From a virus, in the UHGV virus genome UHGV-0196339: 35,119 bases of DNA; one strand, written 5' to 3'. The translations under genes were made by a program, and so were the position numbers. This document shows, piece by piece, positions 1 through 32,059 of this stretch. The notes under the pieces are model-generated. The model had not been told where the DNA came from, searched no databases, and worked only from the letters and a program-made list of their open reading frames with translations. Position 1 is the stretch's first letter. Each line of letters starts with the position of its first letter.

Positions 1-9
1 GTGGTTGAA

Positions 10-477
10 TTATTGTTTAATGGCGTTTTCTATCCATGTCGCCAAATTGTTCTTGATATCGCTATAAGCGTCGTTAAAGTTAGGTTCATATACGAGTGGT
101 TTAATTACTCGATCGCCTCGCTTAAATGTAAATTGGTCGAAAGGATTCGGTCCTTTTGTCCCATAGCCGTTACGAGGGCATTTCAGTCGATGAATATAAA
201 TACCCACCACAGCCTTACCCTCTTTCCAGGCTCTTTCGATCTCATACTTGACCCATGGGCGATTAGCCGTTTGACTCCCGATCAGTACTACTAAGCAGGA
301 TTTGCCATTTAAGCTCTGATTAATCCAATTCTTCACGCCCTGCTCAGTTCGTTTAATTTGTTCCCAAGTATTTGGGCTGACCGGTTCATCCCCCTCCAGC
401 ACTCCCATGTTACGAATCTGCTGTACCCGCATAACATCGTTATCAAAGTGAAAGCTGTAAAATACCTTACGTTTCAT
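10..477 (-). CDS. thsB: Thoeris ThsB, TIR-domain protein
   Basis: 155 aa. N-terminal RKVFYSFHFDND, LVVLIGSQTANRPWVKYEI and KGPNPFD blocks match the ThsB TIR family. ATG lies 2 nt after the thsA stop, with an AGGAGG SD inside the thsA 3' end. AT-rich. Confidence 0.88.
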   Translation of the reverse strand: MKRKVFYSFHFDNDVMRVQQIRNMGVLEGDEPVSPNTWEQIKRTEQGVKNWINQSLNGKSCLVVLIGSQTANRPWVKYEIERAWKEGKAVVGIYIHRLKCPRNGYGTKGPNPFDQFTFKRGDRVIKPLVYEPNFNDAYSDIKNNLATWIENAIKQ

Positions 478-479
478 AT

Positions 480-1946
480 CTAACCTCCTAGTTTCTTTAA
501 AATTTCTAAAACTTTCATTTCGATATTTGCCCGATTAGCAGAGAGATCTGCAAGCTGAGCAACTTCCTTTTCCAACCAAGGGTACCGGACAAAATGTTTA
601 CTTGGATCCGTCAGCATCTCGTCAGCTAGTTCCTTGGCCATATAACCAGTGACGCCAAGTGGAAGCACGACAACCCCTGTTTCCTGAGCAATTTGAAACT
701 CCCTTCGGACCCCATCAGCATTAACGATTCGACCATCATGGAGTTTATTCCCAAAAAGGAATATAGCGATTCCAGAAAGACCAATCATACGCTGCCGATA
801 TTCGTCCCATAGCTCGCTCAGGGCTTTATCGTTTGATGAGTGTTGAGGGAATGGCCGCATGATAAGTTGCTCTTCTGAGTACTTATCAGGCTTAGAATAA
901 ATGGCTTCAAGAGCTCCGTTGATGACCGCACTACCAATACCCCATCCAAACCCATTGACAACTCGATAGCCATTCTTCACCAAAGATGACGAAAGTATGT
1001 GTACAAAGTTTAGTGCTTCCTGTTTGTCCCAAGCGCCATACTCTTCTGCACTACCAGATATAAATATGGTCTTCTTGAGGAAGCGACTCTCAATCTCTTT
1101 CAATATAAGTGGAATATCATCGTACTCGTTTACTAATACAGCCTGAATGCCAAAACGGAGCAAATCGCGAATATGATGTTCTTGCCTACGCTGCCTATAC
1201 ATAGCGCCAGCTTCATCTTCATTTCCTTGCGGCAGAGAGGGTTCCTTACGAAGAAAGCAGTAGTGTCTACGACGATGCTTCTCCGGAACATGCAATCGGC
1301 TCAATATGTAATCAAGATTAGGATCAGTAAAACTGAAGCCAATAAATAAGAATGTCTTAGAAATCAAATCTCCACTCAATGCTGTAACAAACCCCTCATG
1401 GGTCTTGTAGTACTGCTCATACTGAGCTTTATAAAGTATGGCGTCACCTGGCGAGCTAACATCACCATGCATTTTGTAAACAACAGCATCTCGTTTAGGA
1501 CGAGTGGAAATAAGATCATCGGTTCTGCGTTTAATATCTGCGACACGGTAGTTTTCTTTGAGACTATCTTCAATCAAAGTGTCATAGTTGGTTGTCCAAT
1601 AAGTTCTAATGGGTAGTCTAGCAAGGATTTTATGGGCTTCGGAAGGTTCCGCTTGCTCCGAGAATTCCTCTAGGATTTTTCTAGCTAAACCAGTTGAGCT
1701 GTTGTTCTTGTTGACATGGTATTGTGCAACCGAAATTAAGTCGTGCTCTAGCTCAACAGAAAGGCCTAATTCTTCAGCAATTTCACGCAGCAGTTCACTC
1801 CAATTAACGAAGCCGCTGGTTCTAGATAGGCCCGCACCAGCAAAAACGGCGGCAACCCCTTCTTCGAGATCCTTCACATAAGTCCTGATAAAAGCTTCAA
1901 CTTCAGCCGAAAACTGAACACTCATATTTTTAGACAATCCGGTCAA
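480..1946 (-). CDS. thsA: Thoeris ThsA, SIR2 (NADase) + SLOG domain protein
   Basis: 488 aa. SIR2 motifs FAGAGLS, TTNYD, YKMHGD, FIGFSFTDPNLDYILSR. C-terminal SLOG-like region (FISGSAEEYG, GFGWGIGS). Operon partner of thsB. Confidence 0.9.
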   Translation of the reverse strand: MTGLSKNMSVQFSAEVEAFIRTYVKDLEEGVAAVFAGAGLSRTSGFVNWSELLREIAEELGLSVELEHDLISVAQYHVNKNNSSTGLARKILEEFSEQAEPSEAHKILARLPIRTYWTTNYDTLIEDSLKENYRVADIKRRTDDLISTRPKRDAVVYKMHGDVSSPGDAILYKAQYEQYYKTHEGFVTALSGDLISKTFLFIGFSFTDPNLDYILSRLHVPEKHRRRHYCFLRKEPSLPQGNEDEAGAMYRQRRQEHHIRDLLRFGIQAVLVNEYDDIPLILKEIESRFLKKTIFISGSAEEYGAWDKQEALNFVHILSSSLVKNGYRVVNGFGWGIGSAVINGALEAIYSKPDKYSEEQLIMRPFPQHSSNDKALSELWDEYRQRMIGLSGIAIFLFGNKLHDGRIVNADGVRREFQIAQETGVVVLPLGVTGYMAKELADEMLTDPSKHFVRYPWLEKEVAQLADLSANRANIEMKVLEILKKLGG

Positions 1947-2338
1947 AAGATAGACATAAACTTCTTACCACAAACTAACCTTTGTAGTTCTATACACCGC
2001 TTTTACGCTGTGCTTTAGTATCCAAATGGATTCATTACTACTGGGGTCAGTACCTATTGAGTAAGTAGGTAGAAAGCCATTACTAGCTCCAATACTCGCT
2101 AAGTATATGAGGCAATTAGGTGGTATTTTCAAGTTCACCGAGCCTGATACAGGGCCATAGGAATAAATAGTCACATTTTCGTAGCTCTTTTCCACTATTG
2201 GTAGTTAAATAATTACTTTCACTTTATCGCTCAAAGCGTACTCTCAGGTTTATTGCTTTTTAGTTACATAAACCGTCAGTTAGAGTTTGTACCTGTACAA
2301 CCTAGAATAACGGTAGCAACACGTTTGGGGAGGTCGCA

Positions 2339-2599
2339 ATGTTCCGTTGTCCACTTTGTGGTGCATCTGCCCGTATCCGCACCAGTCGTCCGGAAAATGA
2401 TTCAAACACTGTACGACAAAAGTATTACCAGTGTAATAACTTAGAATGCGGCGTATGCTTCTCAACACTGGAAGCTTTTCATAAGTTCACATCAAAACAC
2501 ACCTCCTGCGTTCACTCTTCAGGGGATATTCCGTGGCATGAGCTGCCAGCTTCACACAAGGGAAACAATCAGATGAGTTTGCCTTTACCTCAGAATTAA
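2339..2599 (+). CDS. ogr: Ogr/Delta-type zinc-finger late-gene transcription activator
   Basis: 86 aa, MFRCPLCG...ARIRTSR...YYQCNNLECG: C2C2 zinc-finger pattern as in P2 Ogr. GGAGG SD upstream. Confidence 0.9.
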   Translation: MFRCPLCGASARIRTSRPENDSNTVRQKYYQCNNLECGVCFSTLEAFHKFTSKHTSCVHSSGDIPWHELPASHKGNNQMSLPLPQN

Positions 2600-2687
2600 C
2601 AAGCAGAATTGCCGGAGTAGCAAAAAAGCGATAGATTACGCGCGGGTGCCTTTCGGCTGATGGTCGGAGGGAATACCCGAAGGCCAG

Positions 2688-2924
2688 ATGTGGAAAGGCC
2701 CCGGAAAAACATCTCTGTTTAACCGAGGCCCTAACCGCATTACCTTGACAAGTGAAAGGTTAGCGCCTCTCCGGAAAAGGAGCAAGTGCTATGTCGCAAA
2801 AATCGCTTACGGCCATCACGTTCTGCGTGACGGCAATCCTCATCATCTGGATGCTGCACGGTTCGCTGTGCGAAATACGGATGAGCTTCTGGGGAGCGGA
2901 GTTTGCGGCGTTCTTACAGTGTAA
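2688..2924 (+). CDS. mok-like overlapping reading frame (modulator of killing) of the hok locus
   Basis: 78-aa ORF starting upstream of hok and overlapping it in another frame, the arrangement known for hok/mok/sok loci. No independent sequence support. Confidence 0.3.
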   Translation: MWKGPGKTSLFNRGPNRITLTSERLAPLRKRSKCYVAKIAYGHHVLRDGNPHHLDAARFAVRNTDELLGSGVCGVLTV

Positions 2925-2931
2925 GCAGTAA
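2791..2931 (+). CDS. hok: Hok/Gef-family type I toxin (small membrane peptide)
   Basis: 46 aa, MSQKSLTAITFCVTAILIIWMLHGSLCEIRMSFWGAEFAAFLQCKQ: N-terminal TM helix, then SLCEIR and E-x-AAF motifs as in Hok/Gef. AAAAGGAG SD at 2775-2782. Too short for the ORF track. Confidence 0.7.
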   Translation: MSQKSLTAITFCVTAILIIWMLHGSLCEIRMSFWGAEFAAFLQCKQ

Positions 2932-3020
2932 GGAAACCGCGACGGGGGAGCAATCCCCCGTCAATCGGTTGCCAAGGTAAGGTCGATAAGGCACCCTATC
3001 TCATAGAGATGAATAACAAA

Positions 3021-3052
3021 CCCGCAGCGTAAAAACTGCGGGGTTTCTTTTT
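3021..3052 (+). terminator. Rho-independent terminator of the hok transcript
   Basis: Hairpin CCCGCAG-cgtaaaaa-CTGCGGG followed by TTTCTTTTT. Confidence 0.5.
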
Positions 3053-3120
3053 GGAACTCTCACTAGCTAGTGTACCGTTAGCGGCACATAATGCTCGCAC
3101 AACAAACCAGTTAAAAGAGA

Positions 3121-3516
3121 TTACTCAGCATTCTCCTGCTTCCATTGCCGGATCATTTCATCGGTAACATCACTCTCATAACATACCACGTCATACCCTC
3201 CAGTACGGCTATATGCACTGCGTCCACCACATCTACTACCATTCCTTGCATGATTATAAGGACACGCACAATTGCCTGGATAAGATTCAATGGATTCTTT
3301 AATTATTTCTTTCTTGATCTGAGCATCTGACTTTCCTTTTGCTGCATACCCACTAAAAGATACCAAACAAAGGCAGATTGCCATTAATAAACCACATCGC
3401 ATACCGATACGCCCTATTACTAACCAATCATAGCCCACATCATAAAATCGAGATGAGGAGTACAACACCTTTAACAAGAAGGTGCCATCACGATAATATG
3501 TCGTGCAATTCATCAA
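3121..3516 (-). CDS. Hypothetical Cys-rich secreted or membrane-anchored protein (att-proximal cargo)
   Basis: 131-aa ORF. Internal Met at 3402 is followed by a signal-peptide-like segment MRCGLLMAICLCLVSFSGYAA and a Cys-rich domain (GNCACPY...RCGG...VVCY). The true start may be 3402, which has a better SD. AT-rich. Confidence 0.5.
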   Translation of the reverse strand: MMNCTTYYRDGTFLLKVLYSSSRFYDVGYDWLVIGRIGMRCGLLMAICLCLVSFSGYAAKGKSDAQIKKEIIKESIESYPGNCACPYNHARNGSRCGGRSAYSRTGGYDVVCYESDVTDEMIRQWKQENAE

Positions 3517-3870
3517 AAAAAAGATCTATATCAAAGAGATAGAGTTATTATCAGTGCTGCAGACATCAGCATTCGAGGCAGCAGAAAAACAGTTAATCTA
3601 ACGAATTTGTATTTTCTCAGGATGTTGATTAAAAAAGATAGATTAGCGCAGACACCTTTTGGCGGGTGGTAGGAGGAAAAATGAAGTTGAGTGGGAAGAT
3701 CCCAGAAAAAATTTTGATTTAACCAAGGCCCTAGTTCAACATGCGAAATACAGATTAGTTGCAGGAGAGTTCTGCTTCACGCTTAGAGCTTCAACAGACG
3801 TGCACTATCATTGTTTCTGCATATCGCCACATCATCGCCACTTTACCGCCATTGCACAAAATACAAATAC

Positions 3871-3895
3871 AAAAAAACCACCCGAAGGTGGTTTC
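3871..3895 (-). terminator. Intrinsic terminator (minus strand) downstream of int and the att core
   Basis: Hairpin CCACC-ttcg-GGTGG followed by a 7-T run on the minus strand. Confidence 0.4.
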
Positions 3896-3937
3896 ACGAC
3901 ACTGCTTATTGCTTTGATTTTATTCTTATCTTTCCCA

Positions 3938-3992
3938 TGGTACCCGGAGCGGGACTTGAACCCGCACAGCGCGAACGCCGAGGGATTTTAAA
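3938..3992 (-). other. Phage attachment core: 3'-terminal ~55 nt of a tRNA-Leu(UAA) gene (anticodon loop to CCA), not a complete tRNA
   Basis: Minus-strand sequence TTTAAAATCCCTCGGCGTTCGCGCTGTGCGGGTTCAAGTCCCGCTCCGGGTACCA matches the 3' part of enterobacterial tRNA-Leu (leuZ-like, recalled from memory). The 5' half (D-arm, acceptor 5' strand) is absent. Confidence 0.7.
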
Positions 3993-4098
3993 AACTATCA
4001 ACCACCATTTATATATCATAAAGTTATGATTTTATTAACTTTGCAAATGACTCTATACGACGCCATTTGAATCTATTGTCACTTTTTATCGCCACTTT

Positions 4099-5100
4099 TT
4101 ACCCTCTATTATCAAAAGGATTCAATTCAACAGCAGCCTCTAAATGACCTGGAGCAAAATGCGCATAACGCATAGTCATTTTTATATCGCTATGCCCCAG
4201 TATTTTTTGCAACACAAGAATATTTCCGCCCCGCATCATAAAATGACTGGCAAACGTGTGACGTAGCACATGAGTTAATTGCCCATCAGGAAGCTCGATC
4301 TTCGCTCTCTTAATTGCAGCGTCAAAAGCCTCATAACATGGTGAAAATAGCGCTCCTCGTTTTTTAGGAAGCATAGCCTGCAATTGAGGTGAAATAGGTA
4401 CAGTGCGGTTCTTCTTTCCTTTAGTTTTAACAAATGTGATTCGACCGGGCAGTACTTGAGATTGCTTTAATCCTTCTGCTTCACTCCACCGAGCACCAGT
4501 CGCAAGCCCAATACGGACAACAACCCCCAAATCTTTATTCCGTGACTCATCACACGAAATCAGAAGGCGTTCAATCTCATCTACATACAGAAACGCCAGT
4601 TCCTTTTCTTCCTCACGAAACTTGCGAATACCAGTCAGAGGGTTTTCACCAGACCACTCCCCAAGGCGCTTCAGTTCGGCAAAAACAGCATGTAGATATG
4701 ACTGCTCGCGATTAACGGTTGCTTCACTAAGTTTTTTCTTCCCCTTGGGATTCCATTCTCCTGATAGCCTTCTTTCCCGATAAGTAGCAAACATATTTTT
4801 GTCAAACTGAGAAGCAAATGGATCTCCCAGCCTAGAACAAATCGCCTCAAGTTTGACTTTGCGCTCTGCACCAGAGGACAAGGTTTTACCGTACATCTCA
4901 AACCAACGAGCAATCAACTCAGAAAGACGAGGACCAGAACCATCTTGAAACTCGTCTCCAACTCTACTATTCATTAAACGGCGCTCATAAGAGAGCGCCT
5001 CACTTTTTGTCGCAAACTGTTTACGAATGCGTTTTCCCGATGCCCCGTAGGGATAACATTCGCAAAGCCATTTACCTGATGGAATCTTACGAACCGACAT
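4099..5100 (-). CDS. int: Tyrosine recombinase / phage integrase
   Basis: 333 aa. C-terminal catalytic region with HVLRHTFAS, GHSDIKMTMRYAH (R-H-R-Y family). Adjacent to the tRNA-derived att core. Confidence 0.95.
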   Translation of the reverse strand: MSVRKIPSGKWLCECYPYGASGKRIRKQFATKSEALSYERRLMNSRVGDEFQDGSGPRLSELIARWFEMYGKTLSSGAERKVKLEAICSRLGDPFASQFDKNMFATYRERRLSGEWNPKGKKKLSEATVNREQSYLHAVFAELKRLGEWSGENPLTGIRKFREEEKELAFLYVDEIERLLISCDESRNKDLGVVVRIGLATGARWSEAEGLKQSQVLPGRITFVKTKGKKNRTVPISPQLQAMLPKKRGALFSPCYEAFDAAIKRAKIELPDGQLTHVLRHTFASHFMMRGGNILVLQKILGHSDIKMTMRYAHFAPGHLEAAVELNPFDNRG

Positions 5101-5105
5101 TTTAG

Positions 5106-5453
5106 TTACTTATCACATAAATCAAATGCAGCCTTAGTGACATCCCCCAGATTCTTTTTTAACCCTGGGGCGGCATCATTATCTAGCCAAAATGGATTAT
5201 TGTTATCTAACGGTAACGCACCAAATGTTTTACCTTTTATTCGAGCCAAACCTGTAAGCGCATATAACTTATTATCGTCAAAATTCATCACATAAGGATT
5301 ACCATCAAGACACTGTAATTGAACCTCATCAGTATTAAATGGCCATACCCCATTGAAACTCTCACGTTCAATAGTTTTAAAAGGCATTGCGACGGCAGAA
5401 AAAGAAAACATAAATAAAAAAGTAACTAATAGTTGAATCTTTTTTACTTTCAT
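5106..5453 (-). CDS. Hypothetical secreted (signal-peptide) protein, lysogeny-operon cargo
   Basis: 115 aa. N-terminal MKVKKIQLLVTFLFMFSFSAVA signal peptide, two Cys in the mature part. GAGGT SD. 5-nt gap to int, AT-rich. Confidence 0.6.
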   Translation of the reverse strand: MKVKKIQLLVTFLFMFSFSAVAMPFKTIERESFNGVWPFNTDEVQLQCLDGNPYVMNFDDNKLYALTGLARIKGKTFGALPLDNNNPFWLDNDAAPGLKKNLGDVTKAAFDLCDK

Positions 5454-5482
5454 ATCATTACCTCAATTTAGCTCAAGTAAGA

Positions 5483-6133
5483 TTACAAATTAAAAAACAT
5501 CCTAGAAATGGCACCGCCTACCAAAACCCCTACGCAGATAAAGAATATTATTTCTTTTGGATAAAGTCGGATTAATTCTGAAGCACGAAGTCGGACTTCT
5601 GGTAAGGTCGAATTCTCTGTGTTGCTTGATACCGATTGTTGCTCTAACCACGACAATGCAGACTGTAACTGAGAACGAGTAAGATCGTTTAAACGTCCTG
5701 TACCGAAATTGATATGGCAATACCGCAGAAGTTTTTGTCGAAGTCCACAGTCTTCACTGTTACGTAGTAATAAACTTACAAGAGTCTTACAGGCATCATG
5801 ATCTTTACATCGCTCAAGCATTGCATGCAGAAAACTCTCCGCTGTTTTATATTGATTTACTGTCATATCATCAATACCAGCTACACCAATCTCCGCATGT
5901 ACTTTTTGCCAAATAATAAACGCTTCAGTATTGCTAGCTTCTGCAATAGCAGCAACCAAGCTATTTAGCTCCTTACGCTGAGCCTTAAGCAAAGGGCGAT
6001 CGTCATCATCATTATTCGAAGGGATTGCGATATTGACGATATGAGAACCATCATATCGATCTATCTGAATATTCTTTTCGTGAAAATCACGCCCAGCAAC
6101 GCGATTGTTTGAACCGTTTGAGTTGACGGCCAT
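5483..6133 (-). CDS. Hypothetical tail-anchored membrane protein, lysogeny-operon cargo
   Basis: 216 aa. C-terminal hydrophobic helix IIFFICVGVLVGGAISRMFF. N-terminus SNNRVAGRDFHE repeats the repressor C-terminal motif. GGGAGG SD, 15-nt gap to the repressor stop. Confidence 0.6.
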   Translation of the reverse strand: MAVNSNGSNNRVAGRDFHEKNIQIDRYDGSHIVNIAIPSNNDDDDRPLLKAQRKELNSLVAAIAEASNTEAFIIWQKVHAEIGVAGIDDMTVNQYKTAESFLHAMLERCKDHDACKTLVSLLLRNSEDCGLRQKLLRYCHINFGTGRLNDLTRSQLQSALSWLEQQSVSSNTENSTLPEVRLRASELIRLYPKEIIFFICVGVLVGGAISRMFFNL

Positions 6134-6148
6134 GTCACCTCCCTACTA

Positions 6149-6553
6149 TCACCTACCCTTAGTTTCGTTATAGTCACGACCAGCGATACGGTTATTACCA
6201 CCAGAAATATTTAACTCACGTCCTGATGGCTGAGTTTCCTTTTCACTGACCGCACCTTTTAAAGCCCCGATCACCGCGTTTTTCACATCTAACGAAGCTG
6301 CTCGAAAGCGAGTAATCAACTCCTGCTCATCATCGTTATAAGTTTCAGGTGAGTGAATTCCCAACACAACATACTGAACATCAAGGCCAAAACGAGACAG
6401 CGCTGCCAAATACGCAGCATCAGGAAAGCTATCTCCTTTCTCATATCTAAGCTGAGTTAGCTTTTTGACTCCACCAATGTCGCTCATAGCAACTTGACTA
6501 AGCCCCAATCTTTCCCTTTCCTCACGCAACCGCTGACCAATATCATTTTTCAT
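6149..6553 (-). CDS. XRE-family HTH repressor (cI-like immunity repressor)
   Basis: 134 aa. N-terminal HTH (LGLSQVAMSDIGGVKKLTQLRYEKG). Divergent from the early operon. First gene of the repressor-cargo-int operon. Confidence 0.75.
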   Translation of the reverse strand: MKNDIGQRLREERERLGLSQVAMSDIGGVKKLTQLRYEKGDSFPDAAYLAALSRFGLDVQYVVLGIHSPETYNDDEQELITRFRAASLDVKNAVIGALKGAVSEKETQPSGRELNISGGNNRIAGRDYNETKGR

Positions 6554-6628
6554 ACAAAAACCTTGACAAGTATCTTTTTTGATACCAAAATAATTTCACG
6601 AGCTATTAGATGATCACAATATACCACT
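6554..6628. promoter_or_regulatory. Divergent early/repressor promoter-operator region
   Basis: 75-nt intergenic region between divergent genes. TTGACA at 6564-6569. Palindrome GTATC-tttttt-GATAC at 6571-6586 is a candidate operator. Confidence 0.4.
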
Positions 6629-6835
6629 ATGAAACAAGTTCTTCACGATACCAGATCACGCATTCCGCGTAACACCGCCACAGGTCCAAGACTGGCACTT
6701 CGGCTGTCCCTCGAGGAGCGAGCCGTCATTGATGAAATGGCAGCTAAAGAGCAACGCTCATCCTCTAACATGGCGCGCATGATCTTCCTTCGCGGCCTAG
6801 AGCTAACCCAGAAAGAACAAAACAAATCTTCCTGA
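6629..6835 (+). CDS. Small ribbon-helix-helix-like early regulator (Cox/Cro-position protein)
   Basis: 68 aa. LALRLSLEERAVIDEMAAKEQRSSSNMARMIFLRGLE resembles an RHH beta-alpha-alpha fold. First ORF of the rightward early operon. No clear SD. Confidence 0.45.
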   Translation: MKQVLHDTRSRIPRNTATGPRLALRLSLEERAVIDEMAAKEQRSSSNMARMIFLRGLELTQKEQNKSS

Positions 6836-6851
6836 TCAGGAGGCTAGTGGG

Positions 6852-7084
6852 ATGTCAGGTATAACCATCAATATCAATGTGAATGCCCCCTATGTATCCC
6901 TGCAGAAATATGCAGAGATAACAGGTATCCCTCCGAGGTCGACGAACGCCTGATTACCACTATCGACAAACATCGTTCGGAAAAGGATGCACACCACATC
7001 TACCTCACTGACGGCACTTACTTCTGCGCCACCAACGTGGCGCGAGTAAATCTTATCCGACAGGTACAGGAGCCACGCAGATGA
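6852..7084 (+). pseudogene. Frame-disrupted HTH/excisionase-like early gene (frameshift near 6930-6945)
   Basis: ATG at 6852 gives MSGITININVNAPYVSLQKYAEITGIPPRS then stop at 6951. The +2 frame continues open as DERLITTIDKHRSEKDAHHIYLTDGTYFCATNV... to a TGA overlapping the next ATG at 7081, with no in-frame start of its own. Confidence 0.35.
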
Positions 7085-11586: not shown

Positions 11587-12708
11587 ATGGGCGACTTAGG
11601 TGGTATTCAGTCAGATTTAGCCCAACTAGTTAGACTGGTAATAACTGAACAGTATGATGACGTTCGGTTATATGTCGCTCGCTTGGTGCGTAAATATCGG
11701 GAAACTATGCCTGCTCTATCCGAGCAGCTTGATCTTTATCTACGAAATAAACCGCAAAAGCCTGCACAAAGCCTGCGTAAGGTTACCGCACCAAAACAAG
11801 CGCTGCCTCAAACCATGCCTGTGGACGAGGAGTCAAGGCTTACCTTGCTTAAAGCACCAAATGAAAAGATTGTGAGCAAACCTCTACTGTCCAGTCAGAT
11901 AGAAGACTCACTGGATCAAATTATTCTTGAGCGGAAGCACATCGATCGCCTCAAGACTCTCGGCTTACAACCAACACGCTCTGCCATTTTTGTTGGCCCT
12001 CCGGGTGTAGGTAAAACACTTACGGCAAGCTGGTTAGCTCAGAAATTAGGGGTTCCTTTTTACGTTCTTGATTTAACGGCAGTAATGAGCAGCTATCTGG
12101 GCAAAAGCGGAAATAACCTTCGGGCAGCTCTAGATTTTGCGAAGAAAGGGCCGTGCGTTCTTCTGTTAGATGAAATTGATTCAATCGCCAAAAAGAGAAG
12201 TGATGATTCTGATGTTGGAGAATTAAAAAGACTTGTTACAGTGATACTCCAGGAGGTTGACGAATGGCCGTCTTCTAGTTTGCTACTTGCTGCAACTAAC
12301 TTCGCTGAGTTGATTGATCCAGCACTATGGAGACGTTTTGATTTAGTGCTCAATTTTGAGAAACCAGATAGCGAAAGTATTAAAGAAGCAATTAAACGCT
12401 TTTCAGGTCCCGACTACGCGATTTTTGCACGTTGGATAGATCTACTGGCTATTATGTTCAAAAATGAATCTTTTAGTAATATTGAGCGTTCTATCAACAA
12501 ATTCCGACGTTCGGTCGCTTTAGGTATTTCCTCAGATGAAGAGTTGATTGGGTCGTTCATTAAAGATGGTTTATCAGAATTAGACAGGAATGAACGTAAA
12601 GAAATTGCAGTTACTCTAAAAAGAAATTCTAAATTATCCCAGCATGCCATATCAGACTTAACCGGAGTCAGTAGGGATACAATTAGAAAATACAGTCAAA
12701 AAATGTAA
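11587..12708 (+). CDS. AAA+ ATPase with C-terminal HTH-like segment (IetA-like)
   Basis: 373 aa. Walker A GPPGVGKT, Walker B LLLDEID, sensor-1 ATN, Arg finger region WRRFD. C-terminal LSQHAISDLTGVSRDTIRKY resembles an HTH. AT-rich. Confidence 0.8.
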   Translation: MGDLGGIQSDLAQLVRLVITEQYDDVRLYVARLVRKYRETMPALSEQLDLYLRNKPQKPAQSLRKVTAPKQALPQTMPVDEESRLTLLKAPNEKIVSKPLLSSQIEDSLDQIILERKHIDRLKTLGLQPTRSAIFVGPPGVGKTLTASWLAQKLGVPFYVLDLTAVMSSYLGKSGNNLRAALDFAKKGPCVLLLDEIDSIAKKRSDDSDVGELKRLVTVILQEVDEWPSSSLLLAATNFAELIDPALWRRFDLVLNFEKPDSESIKEAIKRFSGPDYAIFARWIDLLAIMFKNESFSNIERSINKFRRSVALGISSDEELIGSFIKDGLSELDRNERKEIAVTLKRNSKLSQHAISDLTGVSRDTIRKYSQKM

Positions 12709-12731
12709 TACAGCATAGATAAGGAGTATGT

Positions 12732-14957
12732 ATGGCGAAAACTAATTTTCTGATTGGACGCGGCGAATTATTAACCAGCGATATTCCTGGTCCTAAAAGA
12801 GTGCCCGGAAAAGCTGAGGTTTATTCTCTTTACGAATCGAAACAACGTTTATTGCCGCAAATTGCATCTACTATAGAAAATTTTGATGATTTACCCAGTC
12901 AGGCATGTCCTTATGATTATGCTGTGGCTAAGTTGACGTTGAATCCGAGCTATATTGCACGCTCTTTTTTTCCTGCAAAAATGCTTAAGTCTACCGGGTT
13001 AACGTCTATTGGCAGCAGGACGGTAAAAATTACGCCTCAAAGCTGGAAGCGAAAAGTTACTGTGTCAGAAGTAACTACGACACAAATGTTTGTTGCTGGT
13101 AAAAGAGAATCCTTCAAAGAGTTACCTCATTGGGTGTCAGGACTCAAAGAGTTTTCTGACGAAGCGATTGATTTTGCACGCATAGAACGGTTCGATGCCT
13201 ATTTACCCGAAGAGCGTATTATTACCATTGGTGAGCAGGATTCTTCGTATTTTGAGGTTGGTGTTCATTTACTGCCAGATAATGAACAAGACTTGGTTCA
13301 GCAACAATTTGTTCAGTTTGCATCAAATTTGAACATCAAAGTACATACTTCATTAGCTTTTACCGCTGGTACATTATGGTTCGTGCCAATCCAGGCCGAT
13401 AGAATTACTATTAGTAAGCTTGCGAAATTTACATTTGTACGAGTAATAAGACCGGTTCCAAGATTGCGTGGGATTAGACCAATACAAAGGAACTACGGTC
13501 CTTTAGCTCAGTGTAAATTGCCTGCTGAGGGCCCCGTATCTTCAGAAATAAAAGTTGCGATTCTTGATGGCGGTTTACCATCAGAGCACGCTATATCGCC
13601 ATGGTTAAAATCCTATAGAGTTTTGGACGATCATGCAGAGGATGATCCAGACGGTTTAGAACATGGTTTAGCTGTGTCTTCAGCCTTTTTATTTGGACCA
13701 ATAAGTAATAAATCGGAAGCGAAAAGACCATACTCTTATATTGATAACTTAAGAGTTTTGGACAACAAGACCTGCCAAGAAGATCCGCTGGAACTATATC
13801 GAAATTTGGGCTTTATTGAAGAGGTATTGTTGTCTCGCCAGTATCAGTTTATCAATCTAAGTTTAGGTCCAGACCTACCAATTGAAGATACGGAAGTTCA
13901 TGCATGGACTTCCGTTATTGATGATTTGTTAAGTGATGGTGAAACATTAATGACTGTTGCTGTTGGCAACAATGGAGAAATGGATCGCAAGTCTGGTAAT
14001 GCAAGAATTCAAGTACCAGCCGATTGCGTTAATGCTCTTGCTGTTGGTGCTTGTGATACAGTTAATGATACGGAATGGAAACGAGCACCATATAGCGCCA
14101 TTGGGCCAGGCAGAAGTCCTGGCGTGATGAAACCGGATTTAGTTGCGTTTGGTGGTGACACAGACGAGTACTTTCATGTTTTAGGTAAAGGTAAGAAGCC
14201 TGTAATCATACCCCAGCTAGGAACAAGCTTTGCCTCTCCTTACGCCTTACGAGCAGCTGTTGGTGTTCGGGCAATTTTAGGGAACGATTTGAGCCTACTA
14301 GCAATCAAAGCTTTGTTAATTCATGCGTCAAAACAGCTTGATCATCCTTGTACAGAAGTTGGCTGGGGAAAACTTCCTGAAGACTTGAACGACATTATAG
14401 TCAGCCCTGATGGTGTTGCCCGTATCGTCTACCAAGGTGAATTGAAACCAGGAAAATACTTACGCGCTCCTCTTCCAATACCTGAAGGTGGCTTGAAAGG
14501 TAGAATAAACTTAGCGGCAACTTTCTGTTATGCAACAACCACTGATCCACAAGACCCAGCTTCCTATACAAAAGCTGGTTTGGAAGTGACATTCCGGCCA
14601 AATGATTCAAAAATCAAAGACGGAAAACAAAATGCTGAAACCAAGGGATTCTTTGAACTGGCCAAATATTCAACTGAAAGTGAGCGACGTTCTGACATGG
14701 GCAAATGGGAGACCGTCTTACATAATTCGAAGAACATGCTCGGTTCAACTCTAAAAAATCCTGTATTTGACATTCATTATAACGCTCGTGAGGCCGGTGC
14801 AAGCATAGCCAGCCATAAGGCAGAAAAAATCAAGTATGCTCTTATAATTACCATTAAGGCATCAAAGCACCAAGACCTGTATAACGAAATTTTACGTACT
14901 TATAATCAGGTGCTCGTGCCAATTCAACCGCAAACATCAATTCCTATTCGTTCGTAA
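12732..14957 (+). CDS. S8-family subtilisin-like serine peptidase with N- and C-terminal extensions (IetS-like)
   Basis: 741 aa. Subtilase motifs: Asp in VAILDGG, His in LEHGLAV, oxyanion Asn in VGNNG, Ser in GTSFASP. AAGGAG SD 5 nt upstream, 23 nt after the ATPase stop. Confidence 0.85.
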   Translation: MAKTNFLIGRGELLTSDIPGPKRVPGKAEVYSLYESKQRLLPQIASTIENFDDLPSQACPYDYAVAKLTLNPSYIARSFFPAKMLKSTGLTSIGSRTVKITPQSWKRKVTVSEVTTTQMFVAGKRESFKELPHWVSGLKEFSDEAIDFARIERFDAYLPEERIITIGEQDSSYFEVGVHLLPDNEQDLVQQQFVQFASNLNIKVHTSLAFTAGTLWFVPIQADRITISKLAKFTFVRVIRPVPRLRGIRPIQRNYGPLAQCKLPAEGPVSSEIKVAILDGGLPSEHAISPWLKSYRVLDDHAEDDPDGLEHGLAVSSAFLFGPISNKSEAKRPYSYIDNLRVLDNKTCQEDPLELYRNLGFIEEVLLSRQYQFINLSLGPDLPIEDTEVHAWTSVIDDLLSDGETLMTVAVGNNGEMDRKSGNARIQVPADCVNALAVGACDTVNDTEWKRAPYSAIGPGRSPGVMKPDLVAFGGDTDEYFHVLGKGKKPVIIPQLGTSFASPYALRAAVGVRAILGNDLSLLAIKALLIHASKQLDHPCTEVGWGKLPEDLNDIIVSPDGVARIVYQGELKPGKYLRAPLPIPEGGLKGRINLAATFCYATTTDPQDPASYTKAGLEVTFRPNDSKIKDGKQNAETKGFFELAKYSTESERRSDMGKWETVLHNSKNMLGSTLKNPVFDIHYNAREAGASIASHKAEKIKYALIITIKASKHQDLYNEILRTYNQVLVPIQPQTSIPIRS

Positions 14958-23228: not shown

Positions 23229-23682
23229 TTCCCTGCGTGAAGCCATGACCCGTTCATGCCGATGGTGTCAGGCCAACCCGGAAAAATTCACCATTTTCGT
23301 GGAGAGCGGCAACATTGAAACGACAGGAGAAACCCCATCGTTTGTTTACCGCTATCAGATGGTGATGTTTGTCATGGATTACGCCGGGGAGCTGGACGAC
23401 CTCACGCTGCCGCTGCTGGCGTGGTTATCCGAAAATCAGCCACAGTTGTTGCTCAACCCTGAGCGTAATCAGGACATCAAATTCTCCGCCGTTATTAATG
23501 ACGATGACAGCGCCGATCTCCTGTTTACGCTCCCCCTGCGGGAACGCGTTCGCATCACGCGCAGCAGTCAGGGCACACCGCAGGCAGAACACCTGCCGGA
23601 GCCAAAACCCCGCCTGCCATCTTCCGAAGGCGACTGGTCGCATGTATTCCAGGATGTGACGTGGGGTGAAAGCGATGGATAA
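23215..23682 (+). CDS. R: Tail completion protein R (P2 gpR-like)
   Basis: 155 aa, position and size as P2 R. Confidence 0.75.
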   Translation: MLKTDSLREAMTRSCRWCQANPEKFTIFVESGNIETTGETPSFVYRYQMVMFVMDYAGELDDLTLPLLAWLSENQPQLLLNPERNQDIKFSAVINDDDSADLLFTLPLRERVRITRSSQGTPQAEHLPEPKPRLPSSEGDWSHVFQDVTWGESDG

Positions 23683-24310
23683 GGCATTCACCCGCGTGGA
23701 TGAAACCTTTGAGGCCATCCGCGACAGCCTGAATCAGCAGGCCATCAATAACATCGCCAGAAAGCTGGCACAGGATTTACGCCGCGCCCAGCAGGCGCGT
23801 ATCCGGTCACAGAAAGCGCCGGACGGGACCGCGTGGACACCACGCAGACGCCGCGTAACCCGGATACAGGAACGCATTCGCTTTATCTGGAATAACGAAG
23901 CACGCACGCTGAAAAACTGGCATCACGACACGGGGAAATACGGGCGAACCATTACCGGGTGGGATGAGGATAAAAACAATATCCGCACGTTTTACCGGGA
24001 TGACATCGACCGTTTTCTGGAAATACGCACCCGGCGCATCAACCAGGACAGCACCAGGCGCGTCCCCATGTTCGTAAAACTGCGCACCGCCCGCTACCTG
24101 AAAGCCCGTGCAGATGCTTCCAGTGTGACGGTGGGTTACAGCGGCGTGGCCGCACGTATTGCCCGCGTTCATCAGTTCGGTGAGCGCGATCAGGTTGCGC
24201 CGGGCATTTTCACCGATTACCCGGTACGTGAGCTGCTGGGTATCAGCCAGGCAGATGAGCGCCTGATTTATAACACGGTGCTGGGCCGGATTGCGGAGGC
24301 TGTACGGTGA
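23675..24310 (+). CDS. S: Tail completion / virion morphogenesis protein S (P2 gpS-like)
   Basis: About 211 aa from ATG 23675 (the ORF track starts at GTG 23666). Position after R. Confidence 0.72.
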   Translation: MDKAFTRVDETFEAIRDSLNQQAINNIARKLAQDLRRAQQARIRSQKAPDGTAWTPRRRRVTRIQERIRFIWNNEARTLKNWHHDTGKYGRTITGWDEDKNNIRTFYRDDIDRFLEIRTRRINQDSTRRVPMFVKLRTARYLKARADASSVTVGYSGVAARIARVHQFGERDQVAPGIFTDYPVRELLGISQADERLIYNTVLGRIAEAVR

Positions 24311-24888
24311 GCGCAGAACTCATGCGACTGCTGAGCAATATCATCCGCACCGGGATCATCTCTGAAGTTGATGAGAAGTCCTGGCGCGTGCGCGTTCGCA
24401 GCGGCGAACTGGAAACAGGCTGGTTGCGCTGGAACACCACGCGCGCGGGAGCCTTCAATGTGTGGCTGCCGCCATCACCAGGCGAACAGGTGGTAATTGC
24501 CTGCATTGGCGGCAACCCGGAAACCGCCATGATAATTGGCAGCCTGTGGAGTGATGCCAGTCCGGCACCCGGCAAAAGCCTGAAAGAAATCGTGATCAGC
24601 GCGCCGGACGGCGCGGTGTTCCGCTACGACGCGGACGCAGGCGCACTGAGCGCCAGCGGCATGAAAACGGCCACTTTACAGGCATCCGTCAGCGTGAAAC
24701 TGGATACGCCCGTCGTGGAATGCACAAACCTTCTGAGAACGGCGACGCTTGACGTCACAAAAGGGGGAAAGATGAGCGGCAATATCACGCACAGCGGCGG
24801 CAATTTCACCTCAAACGGCATCACAGTGCATACGCATAAACACGGTGGCGTTAAAGGTGGCAGCGATTCGACAGGAGGCCCGCAGTGA
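24307..24888 (+). CDS. V: Baseplate spike/assembly protein V (P2 gpV-like)
   Basis: 193 aa. IRTGII, HTHKHGG and C-terminal Gly-rich tail match P2 V. GTGA overlap with S. Confidence 0.85.
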   Translation: MSAELMRLLSNIIRTGIISEVDEKSWRVRVRSGELETGWLRWNTTRAGAFNVWLPPSPGEQVVIACIGGNPETAMIIGSLWSDASPAPGKSLKEIVISAPDGAVFRYDADAGALSASGMKTATLQASVSVKLDTPVVECTNLLRTATLDVTKGGKMSGNITHSGGNFTSNGITVHTHKHGGVKGGSDSTGGPQ

Positions 24889-25235
24889 CAACCCGCTACA
24901 CAGGAATGAACCCGGACGGAACGGGAAACCTGAACGATATGGAGCACCTGAAACAGTCAGTCAGGGACATCCTGACCACCCCGCTGGCAAGCCGGGTTAT
25001 GCGACGGGAATATGGCAGCCTTGTGCCTGATTTGATTGACGAACCCATGAATAACACCACACGTCTGCAATGCATGAGTGCTGCTGTGATTGCGCTGACA
25101 CGATGGGAACCCCGCATTGCCCTGGACGCTATCGACGTTGTCTGGAAGGCAGGAGGCCGCGCCGGGGTGACGCTGTCGGGCACTGTCATGCAGACCATGC
25201 AGAATGTTGAATTAACCATCACGCTGAGGGAGTAA
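24885..25235 (+). CDS. W: Baseplate wedge protein W (gp25-like)
   Basis: 116 aa. MTTRYTGMN...RVMRREYGSL matches P2 W (MTARYLGMN...). Confidence 0.85.
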   Translation: MTTRYTGMNPDGTGNLNDMEHLKQSVRDILTTPLASRVMRREYGSLVPDLIDEPMNNTTRLQCMSAAVIALTRWEPRIALDAIDVVWKAGGRAGVTLSGTVMQTMQNVELTITLRE

Positions 25236-25238
25236 ATC

Positions 25239-26135
25239 ATGCCTGCCGTTGACCTTTCCCAGTTACCGGAACCCGCCATCATCGCGGAGCCTGACTTTGA
25301 GGCAATTCTGGCTGACACAAAGGCCATGATGATTGCGTCCTATCCCGCCGAACAGCGTGAAGCCGTTTCCGCCGCGCTGGAGCTGGAATCGGAACCCCTG
25401 AACGTTATCGCTCAAACCATGTCGTTTCGTGAAATGCTGTTACGCCAGCGGGTCAATGAGGGCGCACGTGCCTGCATGTTAAGCCACAGCACCGGAACAG
25501 ATCTGGATAACCTCGCGGGCAATATGAACACAAAGCGCCTGACCATCACTCCAGCAACGGATACCACCGACGCGGTGATGGAGAGCGACACCTCGCTGAG
25601 ACTACGGGCGCAGCGGGCGTATGACGGCCTGAGTGTTGCAGGCCCGTCAGGCGCATACGAGTATTTTGCCCGCAGCGCCAGCGGTCTGGTGCGTGATGCG
25701 CGAGCCATCAGCCCGTCTCCGGCCTGTGTGACGGTTTCCATCCTGTCCACTGAGGGCGACGGCACAGCAACGGAGGCGTTGCTTAATACCGTTCGCGCCA
25801 TTCTGAATGCAGAGGATACCCGCCCGGTAGCCGACCGCCTGACCGTACAGAGTGCCAGAATCGTGACATGGCGGCTGAATGCAAAACTGTACTTTTACCC
25901 CGGCCCGGAATCCGAACCTATTCTGGCCGCGGCTGAATCGTCGTTCAGGAAGTGGCTGGCTGAGCAGGGGTTTATCGGTCAGGACGTGGCACTGTCAGCC
26001 ATTGCCGCCGCACTGCATGTGCACGGTGTGCAACGCGTGGAGATAATCGAACCCACACAGAATGTTGTCATCAGTGATACGCAGGCGGCGCGCTGTGAAT
26101 CATTCACCATCAGCGAAGGTGGGCGCAATGAGTAA
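25239..26135 (+). CDS. J: Baseplate protein J
   Basis: 298 aa. DLSQLPEP...DFEAILA, LESEPL, GLSVAG, SPSPACVT, VADRLTVQSA match P2 J. Confidence 0.9.
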   Translation: MPAVDLSQLPEPAIIAEPDFEAILADTKAMMIASYPAEQREAVSAALELESEPLNVIAQTMSFREMLLRQRVNEGARACMLSHSTGTDLDNLAGNMNTKRLTITPATDTTDAVMESDTSLRLRAQRAYDGLSVAGPSGAYEYFARSASGLVRDARAISPSPACVTVSILSTEGDGTATEALLNTVRAILNAEDTRPVADRLTVQSARIVTWRLNAKLYFYPGPESEPILAAAESSFRKWLAEQGFIGQDVALSAIAAALHVHGVQRVEIIEPTQNVVISDTQAARCESFTISEGGRNE

Positions 26136-26736
26136 TTCACTGTTACCACCATCAGCCAGCAGTTTCATGCGTTGTGTCGAAACTGCCAGCACACGCATCA
26201 CAGGCATTCCGGTAAACCTCAGCACACTGTGGTCGCCGGACACATGCCCGGTGCACCTGCTGCCTTATCTCGCCTGGGCGTTTTCCGTTGACCGCTGGGA
26301 TCGCAACTGGCCGGAAGAGACAAAGCGACAGGTGATTCGTGATGCATGGCTGATACACCGACATAAAGGCACTCTCAGCGCACTGCGAAAAGTTGTTGAG
26401 CCACTTGGTTACACGATCGAAATTAAGGAATGGTGGCAGCTCAATGAGGAACCAGGGACATTTCGCATTGTTGTCGGGGTACTTGATCAGGGCATCACCG
26501 ATGAAATGTACATGGAGATTGAACGCCTTATTGCAGATGCAAAACCTGTAAGTCGTCATCTGGCTGGTATGACAATCACTCTGGATACCAAAGGCAATAT
26601 TTTTACTGGTGCAGGGTGTTACCTCGGTGATGCTCTGACAGTGTATGCCTTCACCCCGGAGGAAATTACCGCCAGAGGAGAGTGCACCCCAGCCCAGTCC
26701 GTTCATTTAATTGATAATCTGGAAGTGAAAATATGA
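26128..26736 (+). CDS. I: Baseplate/tail protein I
   Basis: ATG at 26128 overlaps the J stop. MSNSLLPP..., LLPYLAWAFSVDRWD, HRHKGTL, IADAKPVSRHL match P2 I. The ORF track starts at 26062. Confidence 0.85.
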   Translation: MSNSLLPPSASSFMRCVETASTRITGIPVNLSTLWSPDTCPVHLLPYLAWAFSVDRWDRNWPEETKRQVIRDAWLIHRHKGTLSALRKVVEPLGYTIEIKEWWQLNEEPGTFRIVVGVLDQGITDEMYMEIERLIADAKPVSRHLAGMTITLDTKGNIFTGAGCYLGDALTVYAFTPEEITARGECTPAQSVHLIDNLEVKI

Positions 26737-27701
26737 CTGTAAAATACCATGCCATCCTGACAAACCAGGGCGCAACACGAATGGCGCATGCGGTCACGCC
26801 TGGCAACAAACTCAATCTGACGCAAATGGCTGTTGGTGATGCGAACGGAACATTGCCAACGCCAGATCCGGCGCAAACAAGCCTCATTAACCAGAAACGC
26901 ATTGCACCGCTGAATATGCTGAGCATTGACCCGAACAACCCCGGCCAGCTCATTGCGGAGCAAATCATCCCTGAAAACGAGGGAGGATTCTGGATCCGTG
27001 AAATTGGTCTTTTTGATGATGAAGGTGTACTCATTGCGGTGGCAAACTGCCCGGAAACATACAAACCCAAATTACAGGAAGGCAGTGGTCGCACCCAGAC
27101 TATCCGCATGATTCTTACAGTATCAAACACAGACGCTGTTACCTTAATCGTCGATCCTGCTATCGTGCTGGCCACACGGCAATACGTAGATAATCAGGTT
27201 ATCGAAATAAAAGAGCTTCTGAGTGAACATGAAGCAAAACCCGATCCTCATCCTCAGTATGTCAGCAAAACAAGTGAGGAAATGAAGCTTCTGGCTTCAG
27301 TTACAGAGATTGGTAAAAAACTGTTATCCGCCGGAGCTGTTGAAGATATCTGGTCACTACTCGGGCATGATTCAACTTTTGACGGAACACCGGATAACTG
27401 GTGTATTCGATTTAAGAATGGATTTATGGTTCAGGGCGGCACTTTACCTGAAACCGGACCCGCAAGAGTAATCACATACCGGGTCCCCTTCACAACAGCC
27501 GTGCTCTGGCATGATGCTCTGGGATATCAGGATTATTCAGGAGGTGGAGGTCTCGCATATTATAAAATGCACACAATGAAAGATATTGGACTAACCAGCG
27601 CAAAAATCGGGATGCTCGGTTATTTTCGTGCAGATACGACTCAGTTTATTCCGTCGCCGTCATCCATGACGGGCGGGAAATATATTTTTATGGGGTATTG
27701 A
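26733..27701 (+). CDS. H: Tail fibre protein H (short form with divergent C-terminal domain)
   Basis: 322 aa. N-terminal 150 aa (TQMAVGDANGTLPTPD...GGFWIREIGLFDDEGVLIAVAN...EGSGRTQTIRMIL) matches the conserved P2 H N-terminus. C-terminal half unrelated and short. Confidence 0.8.
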   Translation: MTVKYHAILTNQGATRMAHAVTPGNKLNLTQMAVGDANGTLPTPDPAQTSLINQKRIAPLNMLSIDPNNPGQLIAEQIIPENEGGFWIREIGLFDDEGVLIAVANCPETYKPKLQEGSGRTQTIRMILTVSNTDAVTLIVDPAIVLATRQYVDNQVIEIKELLSEHEAKPDPHPQYVSKTSEEMKLLASVTEIGKKLLSAGAVEDIWSLLGHDSTFDGTPDNWCIRFKNGFMVQGGTLPETGPARVITYRVPFTTAVLWHDALGYQDYSGGGGLAYYKMHTMKDIGLTSAKIGMLGYFRADTTQFIPSPSSMTGGKYIFMGY

Positions 27702-28139
27702 ATGAAATATACATACAGCCCGTCAGCCGGCGCATTTTTCCCAAATGAATTCAAAGAAAGCTATAAAGCGGCAGGAAGCTGGCCAACTGATGGTATTGAG
27801 GTGACAAAGGAAATTCGGGATAAGTTTTTAGCCCAGCCACCTGAAGGTAAGTGTCTCGGTGCAGACCAGAACGGGCACCCTGCATGGATTGACATACCCG
27901 AGCCAGATAAGGAAGAACAACAGGCCGAATTCATCAATGAACGAAACCTGCGAATATTGTTTGCTAATGACTATATTGCCAGTAAGCAATGGCCCGCCAG
28001 AGCTGTTCTTGGTCGGTTAAAGGGTAACGAATTATCTGATTACAATAAGTGGCTGGATCACCTTGAAGAACTTGAATCAATAACCCTCGACACTGTTCGT
28101 AATAATCACTGGCCGCAACCCCCTCTACCTTCGACATAA
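27702..28139 (+). CDS. G: Tail fibre assembly protein G
   Basis: 145 aa, immediately downstream of H. N-terminal MKYTYSPSAGAFFP... typical of Tfa proteins. Confidence 0.75.
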   Translation: MKYTYSPSAGAFFPNEFKESYKAAGSWPTDGIEVTKEIRDKFLAQPPEGKCLGADQNGHPAWIDIPEPDKEEQQAEFINERNLRILFANDYIASKQWPARAVLGRLKGNELSDYNKWLDHLEELESITLDTVRNNHWPQPPLPST

Positions 28140-28173: not shown

Positions 28174-28665
28174 TCAGACACGAGAAAAAACATTTCCCAC
28201 TGTTTCATATGCTGAGCTTGCTGTTTTCTGGAAATCACCCAGAAGATCTCCGAAGGAGGATGACTGCAGGCGCTCCCGCAAATCCTCATCACAGCGTTCA
28301 AGGGTCAGTGAAAACTCTATCTTTTTCGCCTTACCGTAGCGATCAAACTCGGAACGGGTCGTATTCGTTTCGGTCAGGACATACATGCCGTAAATCTGCC
28401 CGACGCCATCAATCAAAGGCCAGGGACGTCCTGTATACGCCTGCGTGGTCAGCAGCGACAGCGACACTTCGCCACCTGTAATTTCAGGATAAAGCACACC
28501 AGAAAGCACAATGCGATCATCGCCTGCCCCGATATACTGCCAGCTTGCTGAACGGTTAACGCGTTCATTTTTCACATGTCGCCAGCTTTTATTTTGCTGT
28601 AACTGCTGATGCGGCAATGTGCGCAGCTCAAAAACAAACATGCCGTAGATCATCATCATGTCCAT
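28174..28665 (-). CDS. U: Tail protein U
   Basis: 163 aa. MMMIYGMFVFELRTLPHQQLQQNKSWRH resembles the P2 U N-terminus. Last gene of the minus-strand tail operon. Confidence 0.8.
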   Translation of the reverse strand: MDMMMIYGMFVFELRTLPHQQLQQNKSWRHVKNERVNRSASWQYIGAGDDRIVLSGVLYPEITGGEVSLSLLTTQAYTGRPWPLIDGVGQIYGMYVLTETNTTRSEFDRYGKAKKIEFSLTLERCDEDLRERLQSSSFGDLLGDFQKTASSAYETVGNVFSRV

Positions 28666-28671
28666 GACTCC

Positions 28672-32004: not shown

Positions 32005-32059
32005 CAGTTGTCTCCTTTTCAGTCAGAGGCGACGCACCGCGCCGCCTGCATATTACTTA

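Follow-up and report, generated by a model that had tools for sequence, protein, structure and literature searches.

Integrases of the 186/HP1 type, which occur among P2-like phages, target tRNA genes, and the common cores of their attachment sites are long and extend to variable lengths beyond the tRNA (PMC3448106). The arm-type repeats of this integrase type have the consensus tgccGCCActt, according to a survey of P2-like phages (PMC3448106). The Haemophilus phage HP1 (Hpunavirus) has an 18-bp attB in a tRNA-Leu gene and an attP of about 420 base pairs, and its recombination requires both IHF and Cox (PMC4111918). Phage 186 from the family Peduoviridae shares with the phage described here a tyrosine integrase with arm-type repeats; however, its target is a tRNA-Ile gene. 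Phage P2, also of the Peduoviridae and likewise with a tyrosine integrase and arm repeats, integrates outside tRNA genes, and its arm repeats are of another sequence (tgTGGaCa).

The gene leuZ of Escherichia coli, encoding tRNA-Leu(UAA), is a known integration hot spot (PMC8767318). One of its occupants is Sp13, a P2-like prophage of E. coli O157:H7 Sakai (PMC8190617), which excises to a circular attP form, as shown by PCR and quantitative PCR (PMC2669165). The RNA 3'ETS-leuZ is cut by RNase E from the glyW-cysT-leuZ precursor (PMC6191717). It acts as a sponge for the small RNA RyhB, with which it base-pairs and whose level it reduces (PMC6191717).

The DNA analyzed here, referred to as the window, is the whole stretch of 35,119 nucleotides recorded as the virus genome UHGV-0196339. 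Positions 3823–4098 together with the integrase gene next to them very probably form the attP module of a P2-like phage of E. coli, and the window a complete, circularly permuted copy of the phage genome. Jointly with this reading, and with the same high confidence, the phage can be placed among the temperate Peduoviridae of E. coli that are related to P88 and Xuanwuvirus. Read in this way, the site is an ordinary attP of P2-like phages at leuZ and belongs to the well-studied HP1 type, which is already known.

Integrase and arms of the putative attP

The integrase of the window phage is 58% identical to that of HP1 over its full length (E = 2e-139). In comparisons with known structures, it matches the catalytic domain of HP1 integrase (PDB 1AIH, E = 3.6e-75) as well as the integrase of P2 (5C6K, E = 1e-53). 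Many IMG/VR proviruses encode integrases that are 100% identical to it in protein sequence. As in HP1, the gene reads toward the attachment site. The coordinates of the attachment site and of the other features discussed in this study are listed in Table 1.

Table 1. Features of the window phage genome at and around the putative attachment site.
Feature	Position	Strand	Remarks
Type I Thoeris system	10–1946	-	Between tail gene D and ogr
ThsB, TIR	10–477	-	PADLOC, E = 3e-70
ThsA, SIR2-SLOG	480–1946	-	PADLOC, E = 6e-203
hok/sok-type toxin-antitoxin locus	2644–2931		Between ogr and the att site
hok ORF, 46 aa	2791–2931		Overlaps a mok-like ORF, 2688–2924
Non-coding phage DNA forming the rest of the P arm	3403–3822	.	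From the last ogr-side ORF to the arm-type sites
Candidate arm-type integrase sites of the P arm	3823–3853	-	Direct repeats TGTGGCGAT, AGTGGCGAT, AATGGCGGT; 11 bp start to start
Block identical to host attB (common core), 124 bp	3869–3992	-	Begins at the anticodon loop and ends 2 nt beyond the terminator of the operon
Complete copy of 3'ETS-leuZ RNA, 67 nt	3871–3937	-	67/67 identical to K-12 b4759
Intrinsic terminator of the glyW-cysT-leuZ operon	3874–3895	-	Terminator scan; hairpin seen in RNA fold
3' 55 nt of leuZ, tRNA-Leu(UAA)	3938–3992	-	Anticodon loop, 3' anticodon stem, variable arm, T arm, 3' acceptor strand, CCA
Putative 7-bp overlap TTTAAAA, equal to the anticodon loop	3986–3992	-	Placed where host identity begins and from HP1
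P' arm	3993–4098	-	29% G+C
IHF-like palindrome AATCATAAnnTTATGAT	4014–4031		In the P' arm; consensus-like match only
Weaker copies of the arm motif in the P' arm	4059–4067, 4075–4083	-	Motif scan
Arm-type site of the P' arm, AGTGGCGAT	4088–4096	-	Motif scan
Tyrosine integrase, HP1 type, 333 aa	4099–5100	-	Pfam Int_N, E = 5e-32; Phage_integrase, E = 1e-21
IetA (AAA ATPase, 373 aa) and IetS (S8 subtilase, 741 aa), second defence system	11587–14957	+	

The arm-type sites were called by a motif scan combined with a repeat finder. The repeats follow the pattern A-N-TGGCG-R-Y with an 11-bp phase, and the sequence ATCGCCAC is present in five copies in the window, three of which are located in the P-arm sites or in the P' arm. 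The candidate sites fit the 186/HP1-type consensus, and as expected for this family they are positioned on both sides of the core, at 3823–3853 and 4088–4096. The sites are kept in related attP and attR sequences, and the IHF-like palindrome AATCATAAnnTTATGAT is conserved in relatives whose integrases are 70–100% identical to that of the window phage.

The region of the P arm beyond the candidate arm-type sites (3403–3822) is an AT-rich stretch of about 420 base pairs that is conserved at 89–99% in prophage ends at leuZ from 609 genomes; the G+C content of the segment 3403–3868 is 39.5%. A search of 3403–3822 against Rfam returned no match. The stretch may contain binding sites for a directionality factor. 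The search for a recombination directionality factor gave none; the switch region contains no homologue of HP1 Cox, and the cox position (6629–6835) is occupied by a gene for an Arc-like repressor family member that does not resemble HP1 Cox.

The annotated attP of HP1 (NC_001697, positions 251–694) was compared with the window directly from the genome record. In HP1, int is followed by the tandem repeats ACTGGCGAT and GCTGGCGGT, after which the 3' part of tRNA-Leu begins with TATTTAAAATCCCTCG. The rest of the operon, in which a spacer precedes another, complete tRNA gene, comes next and is succeeded by ACTGGCGAC, AGTGGCGGT, and AATGGCGAT. The arms of the two sites share the A-N-TGGCG-R-Y motif and the 11-bp spacing, and both phages have the anticodon loop of tRNA-Leu(UAA) as their target, with the common sequence TTTAAAATCCCTCG. 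The two phages differ in their hosts, which are Haemophilus for HP1 and E. coli for the window phage, and in the carried segment: HP1 contains the spacer and the whole tRNA-Lys gene, whereas the window contains 3'ETS-leuZ and the terminator in a block of 124 base pairs in total. They also differ in that the window has no homologue of HP1 Cox, and the rest of its genome resembles P88 and Xuanwuvirus.

The block shared with the leuZ operon

The minus-strand letters at window positions 3992–3938, TTTAAAATCCCTCGGCGTTCGCGCTGTGCGGGTTCAAGTCCCGCTCCGGGTACCA, are an exact copy of the last 55 nucleotides of leuZ from E. coli K-12, and 55 nucleotides is also the length of the longest leuZ suffix found in the window. 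The first base of the fragment is the start of the seven-nucleotide anticodon loop (TTTAAAA), and its end is CCA. Directly 5' of the fragment the window reads GATAGTT, whereas the tRNA has CAAGGGA, and the 5' 32 nucleotides of the tRNA are missing from the window. ARAGORN detected no tRNA gene in the whole window, and Rfam gave no tRNA match between positions 2000 and 5500 even at E ≤ 1. The window thus holds no complete cloverleaf that scores with a tRNA model, as a functional tRNA-Leu gene would. An earlier, preliminary description of the locus, made from its letters and open reading frames, had stated that only the part of tRNA-Leu(UAA) from the anticodon loop to CCA is present and that the upstream tRNA positions differ. 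Both statements agree with the exact 55-nucleotide match and its mismatched 5' neighbors, and the complete tRNA that would speak against an attP at this locus was detected by neither ARAGORN nor Rfam. The description had also equated the att core with the 55-nucleotide fragment; the length of the tRNA part is exact, but the block shared with the host is in fact 124 base pairs long.

The identity between the window and the host site is 100% over positions 3869–3992 in alignments with both K-12 and a lysogen junction. It passes the CCA end of the tRNA, crosses the whole 67-nucleotide 3'ETS-leuZ and the operon terminator, and ends two nucleotides beyond it. The identity to K-12 stops after the T-run of the terminator, with K-12 diverging immediately to the left of position 3869. 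The interval 3871–3992, to which the preliminary description referred, is the sum of the 55-nucleotide fragment and a 67-nucleotide spacer. Chance cannot explain an exact match of 55 nucleotides, or of 124. The core is present in a single copy in the window.

The K-12 counterpart of the spacer is b4759, annotated at 1991748–1991814 directly 3' of leuZ. The phage copy of 3'ETS-leuZ contains the RyhB-pairing stretch AAGCAGUGUCGUG, and this stretch together with the predicted terminator gives it the sequence features expected of the small-RNA sponge. Rfam has no family spanning the 3'ETS or the tRNA fragment. In the free phage, the 3'ETS copy would lie behind the truncated tRNA and downstream of int, and in lysogens it lies behind an intact leuZ.

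According to the terminator scan, the leuZ terminator is the first one downstream of the phage cI-int gene block. The scan found no minus-strand terminator in the region 5000–7000 and none from the int stop codon to position 3895. Because none is predicted on the minus strand from the repressor gene to int, or from int to the core, the leuZ terminator probably also ends the cI-int transcript, in the free and integrated states alike. Open reading frames on the plus strand across the att region (3659–3991, 3759–3917, and 3811–4029) run antisense through the block of tRNA and terminator and were rejected as spurious.

Genes neighboring the attachment site

To the right of the core, int is followed by a DUF2511 gene, an ORF of 216 amino acids, and a gene encoding a CI-like repressor with an HTH motif. 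To the left of the core are a small ORF, the hok gene accompanied by a sok-like RNA, ogr, and the Thoeris pair thsA/thsB. The sok-like RNA matches Rfam family RF01794 with E = 8.5e-9, which is below the gathering score. The junction of thsB with gene D is matched at 99–100% in only five of the 5426 complete E. coli genomes. The genes of IetA and IetS sit between replication gene A and the portal gene; the prophage of E. coli H3 has parM and a partition gene at this position instead. Tail genes (U-like, tape measure, E, tube, and sheath; 28174–33756) are on the minus strand, and the baseplate and fibre genes (23666–28139) and gene D (33782–35023) are on the plus strand. The gene order of P2 is co-oriented, unlike this split of tail and baseplate genes between strands. 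The split arrangement is common to related E. coli prophages.

Flanks of the core and completeness of the genome

The core is positioned between ogr (2339–2599; Pfam Ogr_Delta, E = 5e-14) on one side and the tyrosine integrase gene on the other. Among 5426 complete E. coli genomes, just 641 (12%) contain the P arm on the ogr side (window 3300–3868), which is therefore accessory prophage DNA and not part of the host backbone. In all four lysogens examined (F2_407_2_2, H3, WS4202, and 155), the ogr-side flank is the prophage end next to leuZ. The order in lysogens H3 and F2_407_2_2 is yecA, core, int, and so on to the tail genes, D, thsB, thsA, ogr, hok, and a core, and this core at the ogr/hok end is joined to an intact leuZ-cysT-glyW. 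Both junctions, attL and attR, are present in E. coli H3, F2_407_2_2, and strain 155, and the lysogens keep an intact annotated tRNA-Leu.

BLAST comparison with the E. coli H3 locus places window 3869–6933 at the int end of the prophage and window 1–3992 at its ogr end. Segment 28246–35119 of the window corresponds to 30505–37368 of H3, and segment 1–3992 to 37369–41364. The ends of the window are thus adjacent in the phage, since the first segment ends at H3 position 37368 and the second starts at 37369. A 395-nucleotide query spanning from the window end to its start has a 100% match in two lysogens. The window has no terminal overlap and includes no host DNA, and its start point falls between gene D and thsB. 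The gene set appears to be complete, with portal, terminase, capsid, tail, and lysis genes.

The complete E. coli genomes, 5426 in all, lack the order P arm, core, P' arm. The attP form is present in two IMG/VR contigs, of which one (L018) is an isolate assembly and the other (L047) comes from a metagenome. The scan for the attP form employed a generic two-boundary pattern, for which L047 was also the single metagenome match; the same pattern had no match in genome_contigs. A 38-mer of the P' arm that is specific to the window was likewise without an exact match in viral_contigs and genome_contigs, so that the contig of origin did not turn up in these collections.

Three other origins of the junction were considered. 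If it were the attL or attR of an integrated prophage, the ogr-side flank would be host DNA or another island, and the 69 base pairs to the left of the tRNA fragment (3869–3937) are indeed 100% identical to the host. However, the identity to K-12 stops at 3869, the DNA further to the left is the right end of the prophage in lysogens and joins the other end of the window, the ogr-side DNA occurs in only 12% of genomes, and host DNA adjoins the core on neither side in the window. The attL and attR readings are excluded. The internal junction of two prophages arranged head to tail, from which the window would have been cut, has the same arrangement as an attP, and leuZ does carry tandem arrays made up of different elements. 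An arbitrary cut, however, would yield exactly one unit with seamless ends only by coincidence, such a junction is found in 0 of the 5426 complete E. coli genomes, and the window lacks both host DNA and a second core; a tandem dimer is extremely unlikely as the source.

The window might also be an assembly product, in which the two 124-bp direct repeats of a lysogen were collapsed into a seemingly circular contig that was later rotated, so that no excised molecule would be needed. A cycle in the assembly graph would give exactly the observed sequence, as the core is identical at both prophage ends examined; the window is exactly one unit with an arbitrary start, and contigs in the attP form are rare in public collections. 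By contrast, contigs collapsed in this manner normally begin and end at the repeat, whereas the window begins between gene D and thsB. Circularization of the related Sp13 (PMC2669165), the attP form of the independent metagenome contig L047, and the seemingly complete gene set also speak against a collapse, which we consider improbable.

The attP of a circularly permuted phage genome is the reading that we adopt. The preliminary description had placed phage genes on both sides of the core, in the configuration of attP and not of attL or attR. This holds, given the frequency of the P arm among the E. coli genomes and its position at the prophage end in lysogens, and the host identity of the ogr-side flank, which would contradict it, is limited to the 124-bp block, beyond which the flank is prophage DNA. 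The suggestion of a circular or arbitrarily started phage genome gains support from the adjoining of the window ends in the H3 prophage and from the perfect matches of the junction query in two lysogens. The existence of a physical circular molecule is beyond the reach of sequence alone.

Other elements integrated at leuZ

Integrases of at least three lineages use leuZ, sometimes in tandem. The lambdoid phage mEp390 (Hendrixvirinae) has an attP of 121 base pairs, annotated in its record as a 'putative prophage insertion site', that comprises the 3' part of leuZ, the trailer, and the terminator and is 88.5% identical to the corresponding sequence of the window. Its integrase is unrelated to that of the window phage (21% identity) and is encoded on the other side of the core, and its arm repeats are TTCGCCAT. 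The tRNA part of mEp390 contains a compensatory change in the T-stem.

An mEp390-like prophage alters the functional leuZ of its host, with the T-stem pair C-G replaced by T-A and the trailer differing at several positions. The RyhB-pairing stretch AATAAGCAGTGTCGTGAAACC is unchanged in the mEp390-like trailer, both in E. coli 2017C-4173W12 (L090, 48360–48596) and in the attP of mEp390 (L084, 2501–2621).

Tandem arrays at leuZ were observed in loci L005, L024, and L027 (about 3733–4900), and also in L034, L046, L048, and L039. In these arrays, an mEp390-like integrase gene comes directly after the core of the P2-like int and converges on that core. Because the second integrase converges directly on the core, two different prophages share one core copy. 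Loci L034, L046, L048, and L039 had been candidates for attP forms, owing to the direct repeats after the core, and for phage-borne trailers in other host species; they were rejected on both counts as tandem junctions with the mEp390-like integrase. In L020, the core is followed by another island, one with a fragment of a P4-type integrase. Up to four core copies per genome were counted. The record NC_049344.1 ('Escherichia phage 520873', locus L085) contains at positions 2–685 first the host gene yecA and then the att core and a split integrase. Because the record starts with a host flank, it is a prophage excerpt in the attL form rather than a free phage genome.

Probable strand exchange and its consequences in lysogens

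In HP1, in the window, and in all integrase relatives examined, TTTAAAA is the exact point at which identity to the host sets in, and in none of them do the bases just 5' of TTTAAAA match the host. Hauser and Scocca reportedly located the exchange points of HP1, in 1992, within the anticodon loop of tRNA-Leu. From the block boundary and the homology with HP1, we infer that the integrase of the window phage exchanges strands across the anticodon loop TTTAAAA.

An O157-type prophage is related to the window phage, with 97.9% DNA identity in the stretch from the core over P' into int (to position 4400) and about 89% in the P arm; however, Sp13, a close relative of the window phage, is a degraded remnant of about 21 kb interrupted by IS elements, whereas the window is a full genome of 35.1 kb. 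In the O157-type strain 155, the leuZ-proximal core, which is linked to the P arm, differs from the window by two SNPs, located at positions 64 and 122 of the core. On the int side, the core that is joined to the yecA flank matches the host in sequence. The exchange therefore lies 5' of core position 64, within positions 1–63, unless the SNPs arose after integration; as they could postdate it, the SNPs are suggestive evidence for the side of the crossover. A search for the O157 core variant (C64) in the attP form returned an attR junction as its only match.

Exchange between attP and attB within the 124-bp block would generate two recombinant junctions, one with the order yecA, core, P', int, and the other with the P arm, the core completed by the 5' half of leuZ, cysT, and glyW; natural lysogens carry both. 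If the integrase swaps strands over the seven base pairs TTTAAAA of the leuZ anticodon loop, then the phage copy would supply all parts of the operon 3' of the exchange, which are the 3' half of the tRNA, 3'ETS-leuZ, and the terminator. The leuZ gene, the trailer RNA, and the termination of the operon would stay intact in the lysogen, and the displaced host copy would end up about 35 kb away, downstream of int. In the case of the window phage, whose copy is 100% identical to that of the host, the operon would be restored unchanged.

In E. coli 2017C-4173W12, which harbors an mEp390-like lambdoid prophage, the intact leuZ has the T-stem pair and the variant trailer of the phage, and the host versions of the tRNA part and trailer are located at the yecA end. 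Because the intact leuZ of this lysogen carries the phage version, replacement at leuZ is shown directly, for the mEp390-like phage only. Lysogeny certainly duplicates the 3'ETS-leuZ sponge, and most likely it also replaces the leuZ-linked sponge copy.

Implications for phages at leuZ and their hosts

For the annotation of this phage, the analysis fixes the integration site (leuZ), the orientation, and the att boundaries. The window is to be read as a whole genome with an arbitrary start, and its 124-bp stretch identical to the host belongs to attP and is neither contamination nor a host flank. The site exemplifies the rule that the attP of a phage includes the whole of the host transcription unit downstream of the crossover, which for HP1 means a second tRNA and for the window phage a trailer RNA and a terminator.

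Prophages at leuZ were seen in no fewer than 12% of the E. coli genomes. These common prophages duplicate a small-RNA sponge of the host, and they would replace the leuZ-linked copy if the exchange takes place in the anticodon loop. Our literature search found no paper linking 3'ETS-leuZ to the att sites of prophages. That the phage-borne 3'ETS-leuZ is more than filler, and that prophages at leuZ could increase or otherwise change the amount of the sponge for RyhB and RybB, is a speculative idea that we regard as possible but doubtful. If it is true, the copy attached to leuZ would be that of the phage, and the displaced host copy would end the constitutively transcribed cI-int operon. In lysogens of phages with diverged copies, such as the mEp390-like phages, the sponge would also be altered in its sequence. 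The thresholds of small-RNA responses to iron stress and envelope stress could then shift in the lysogens.
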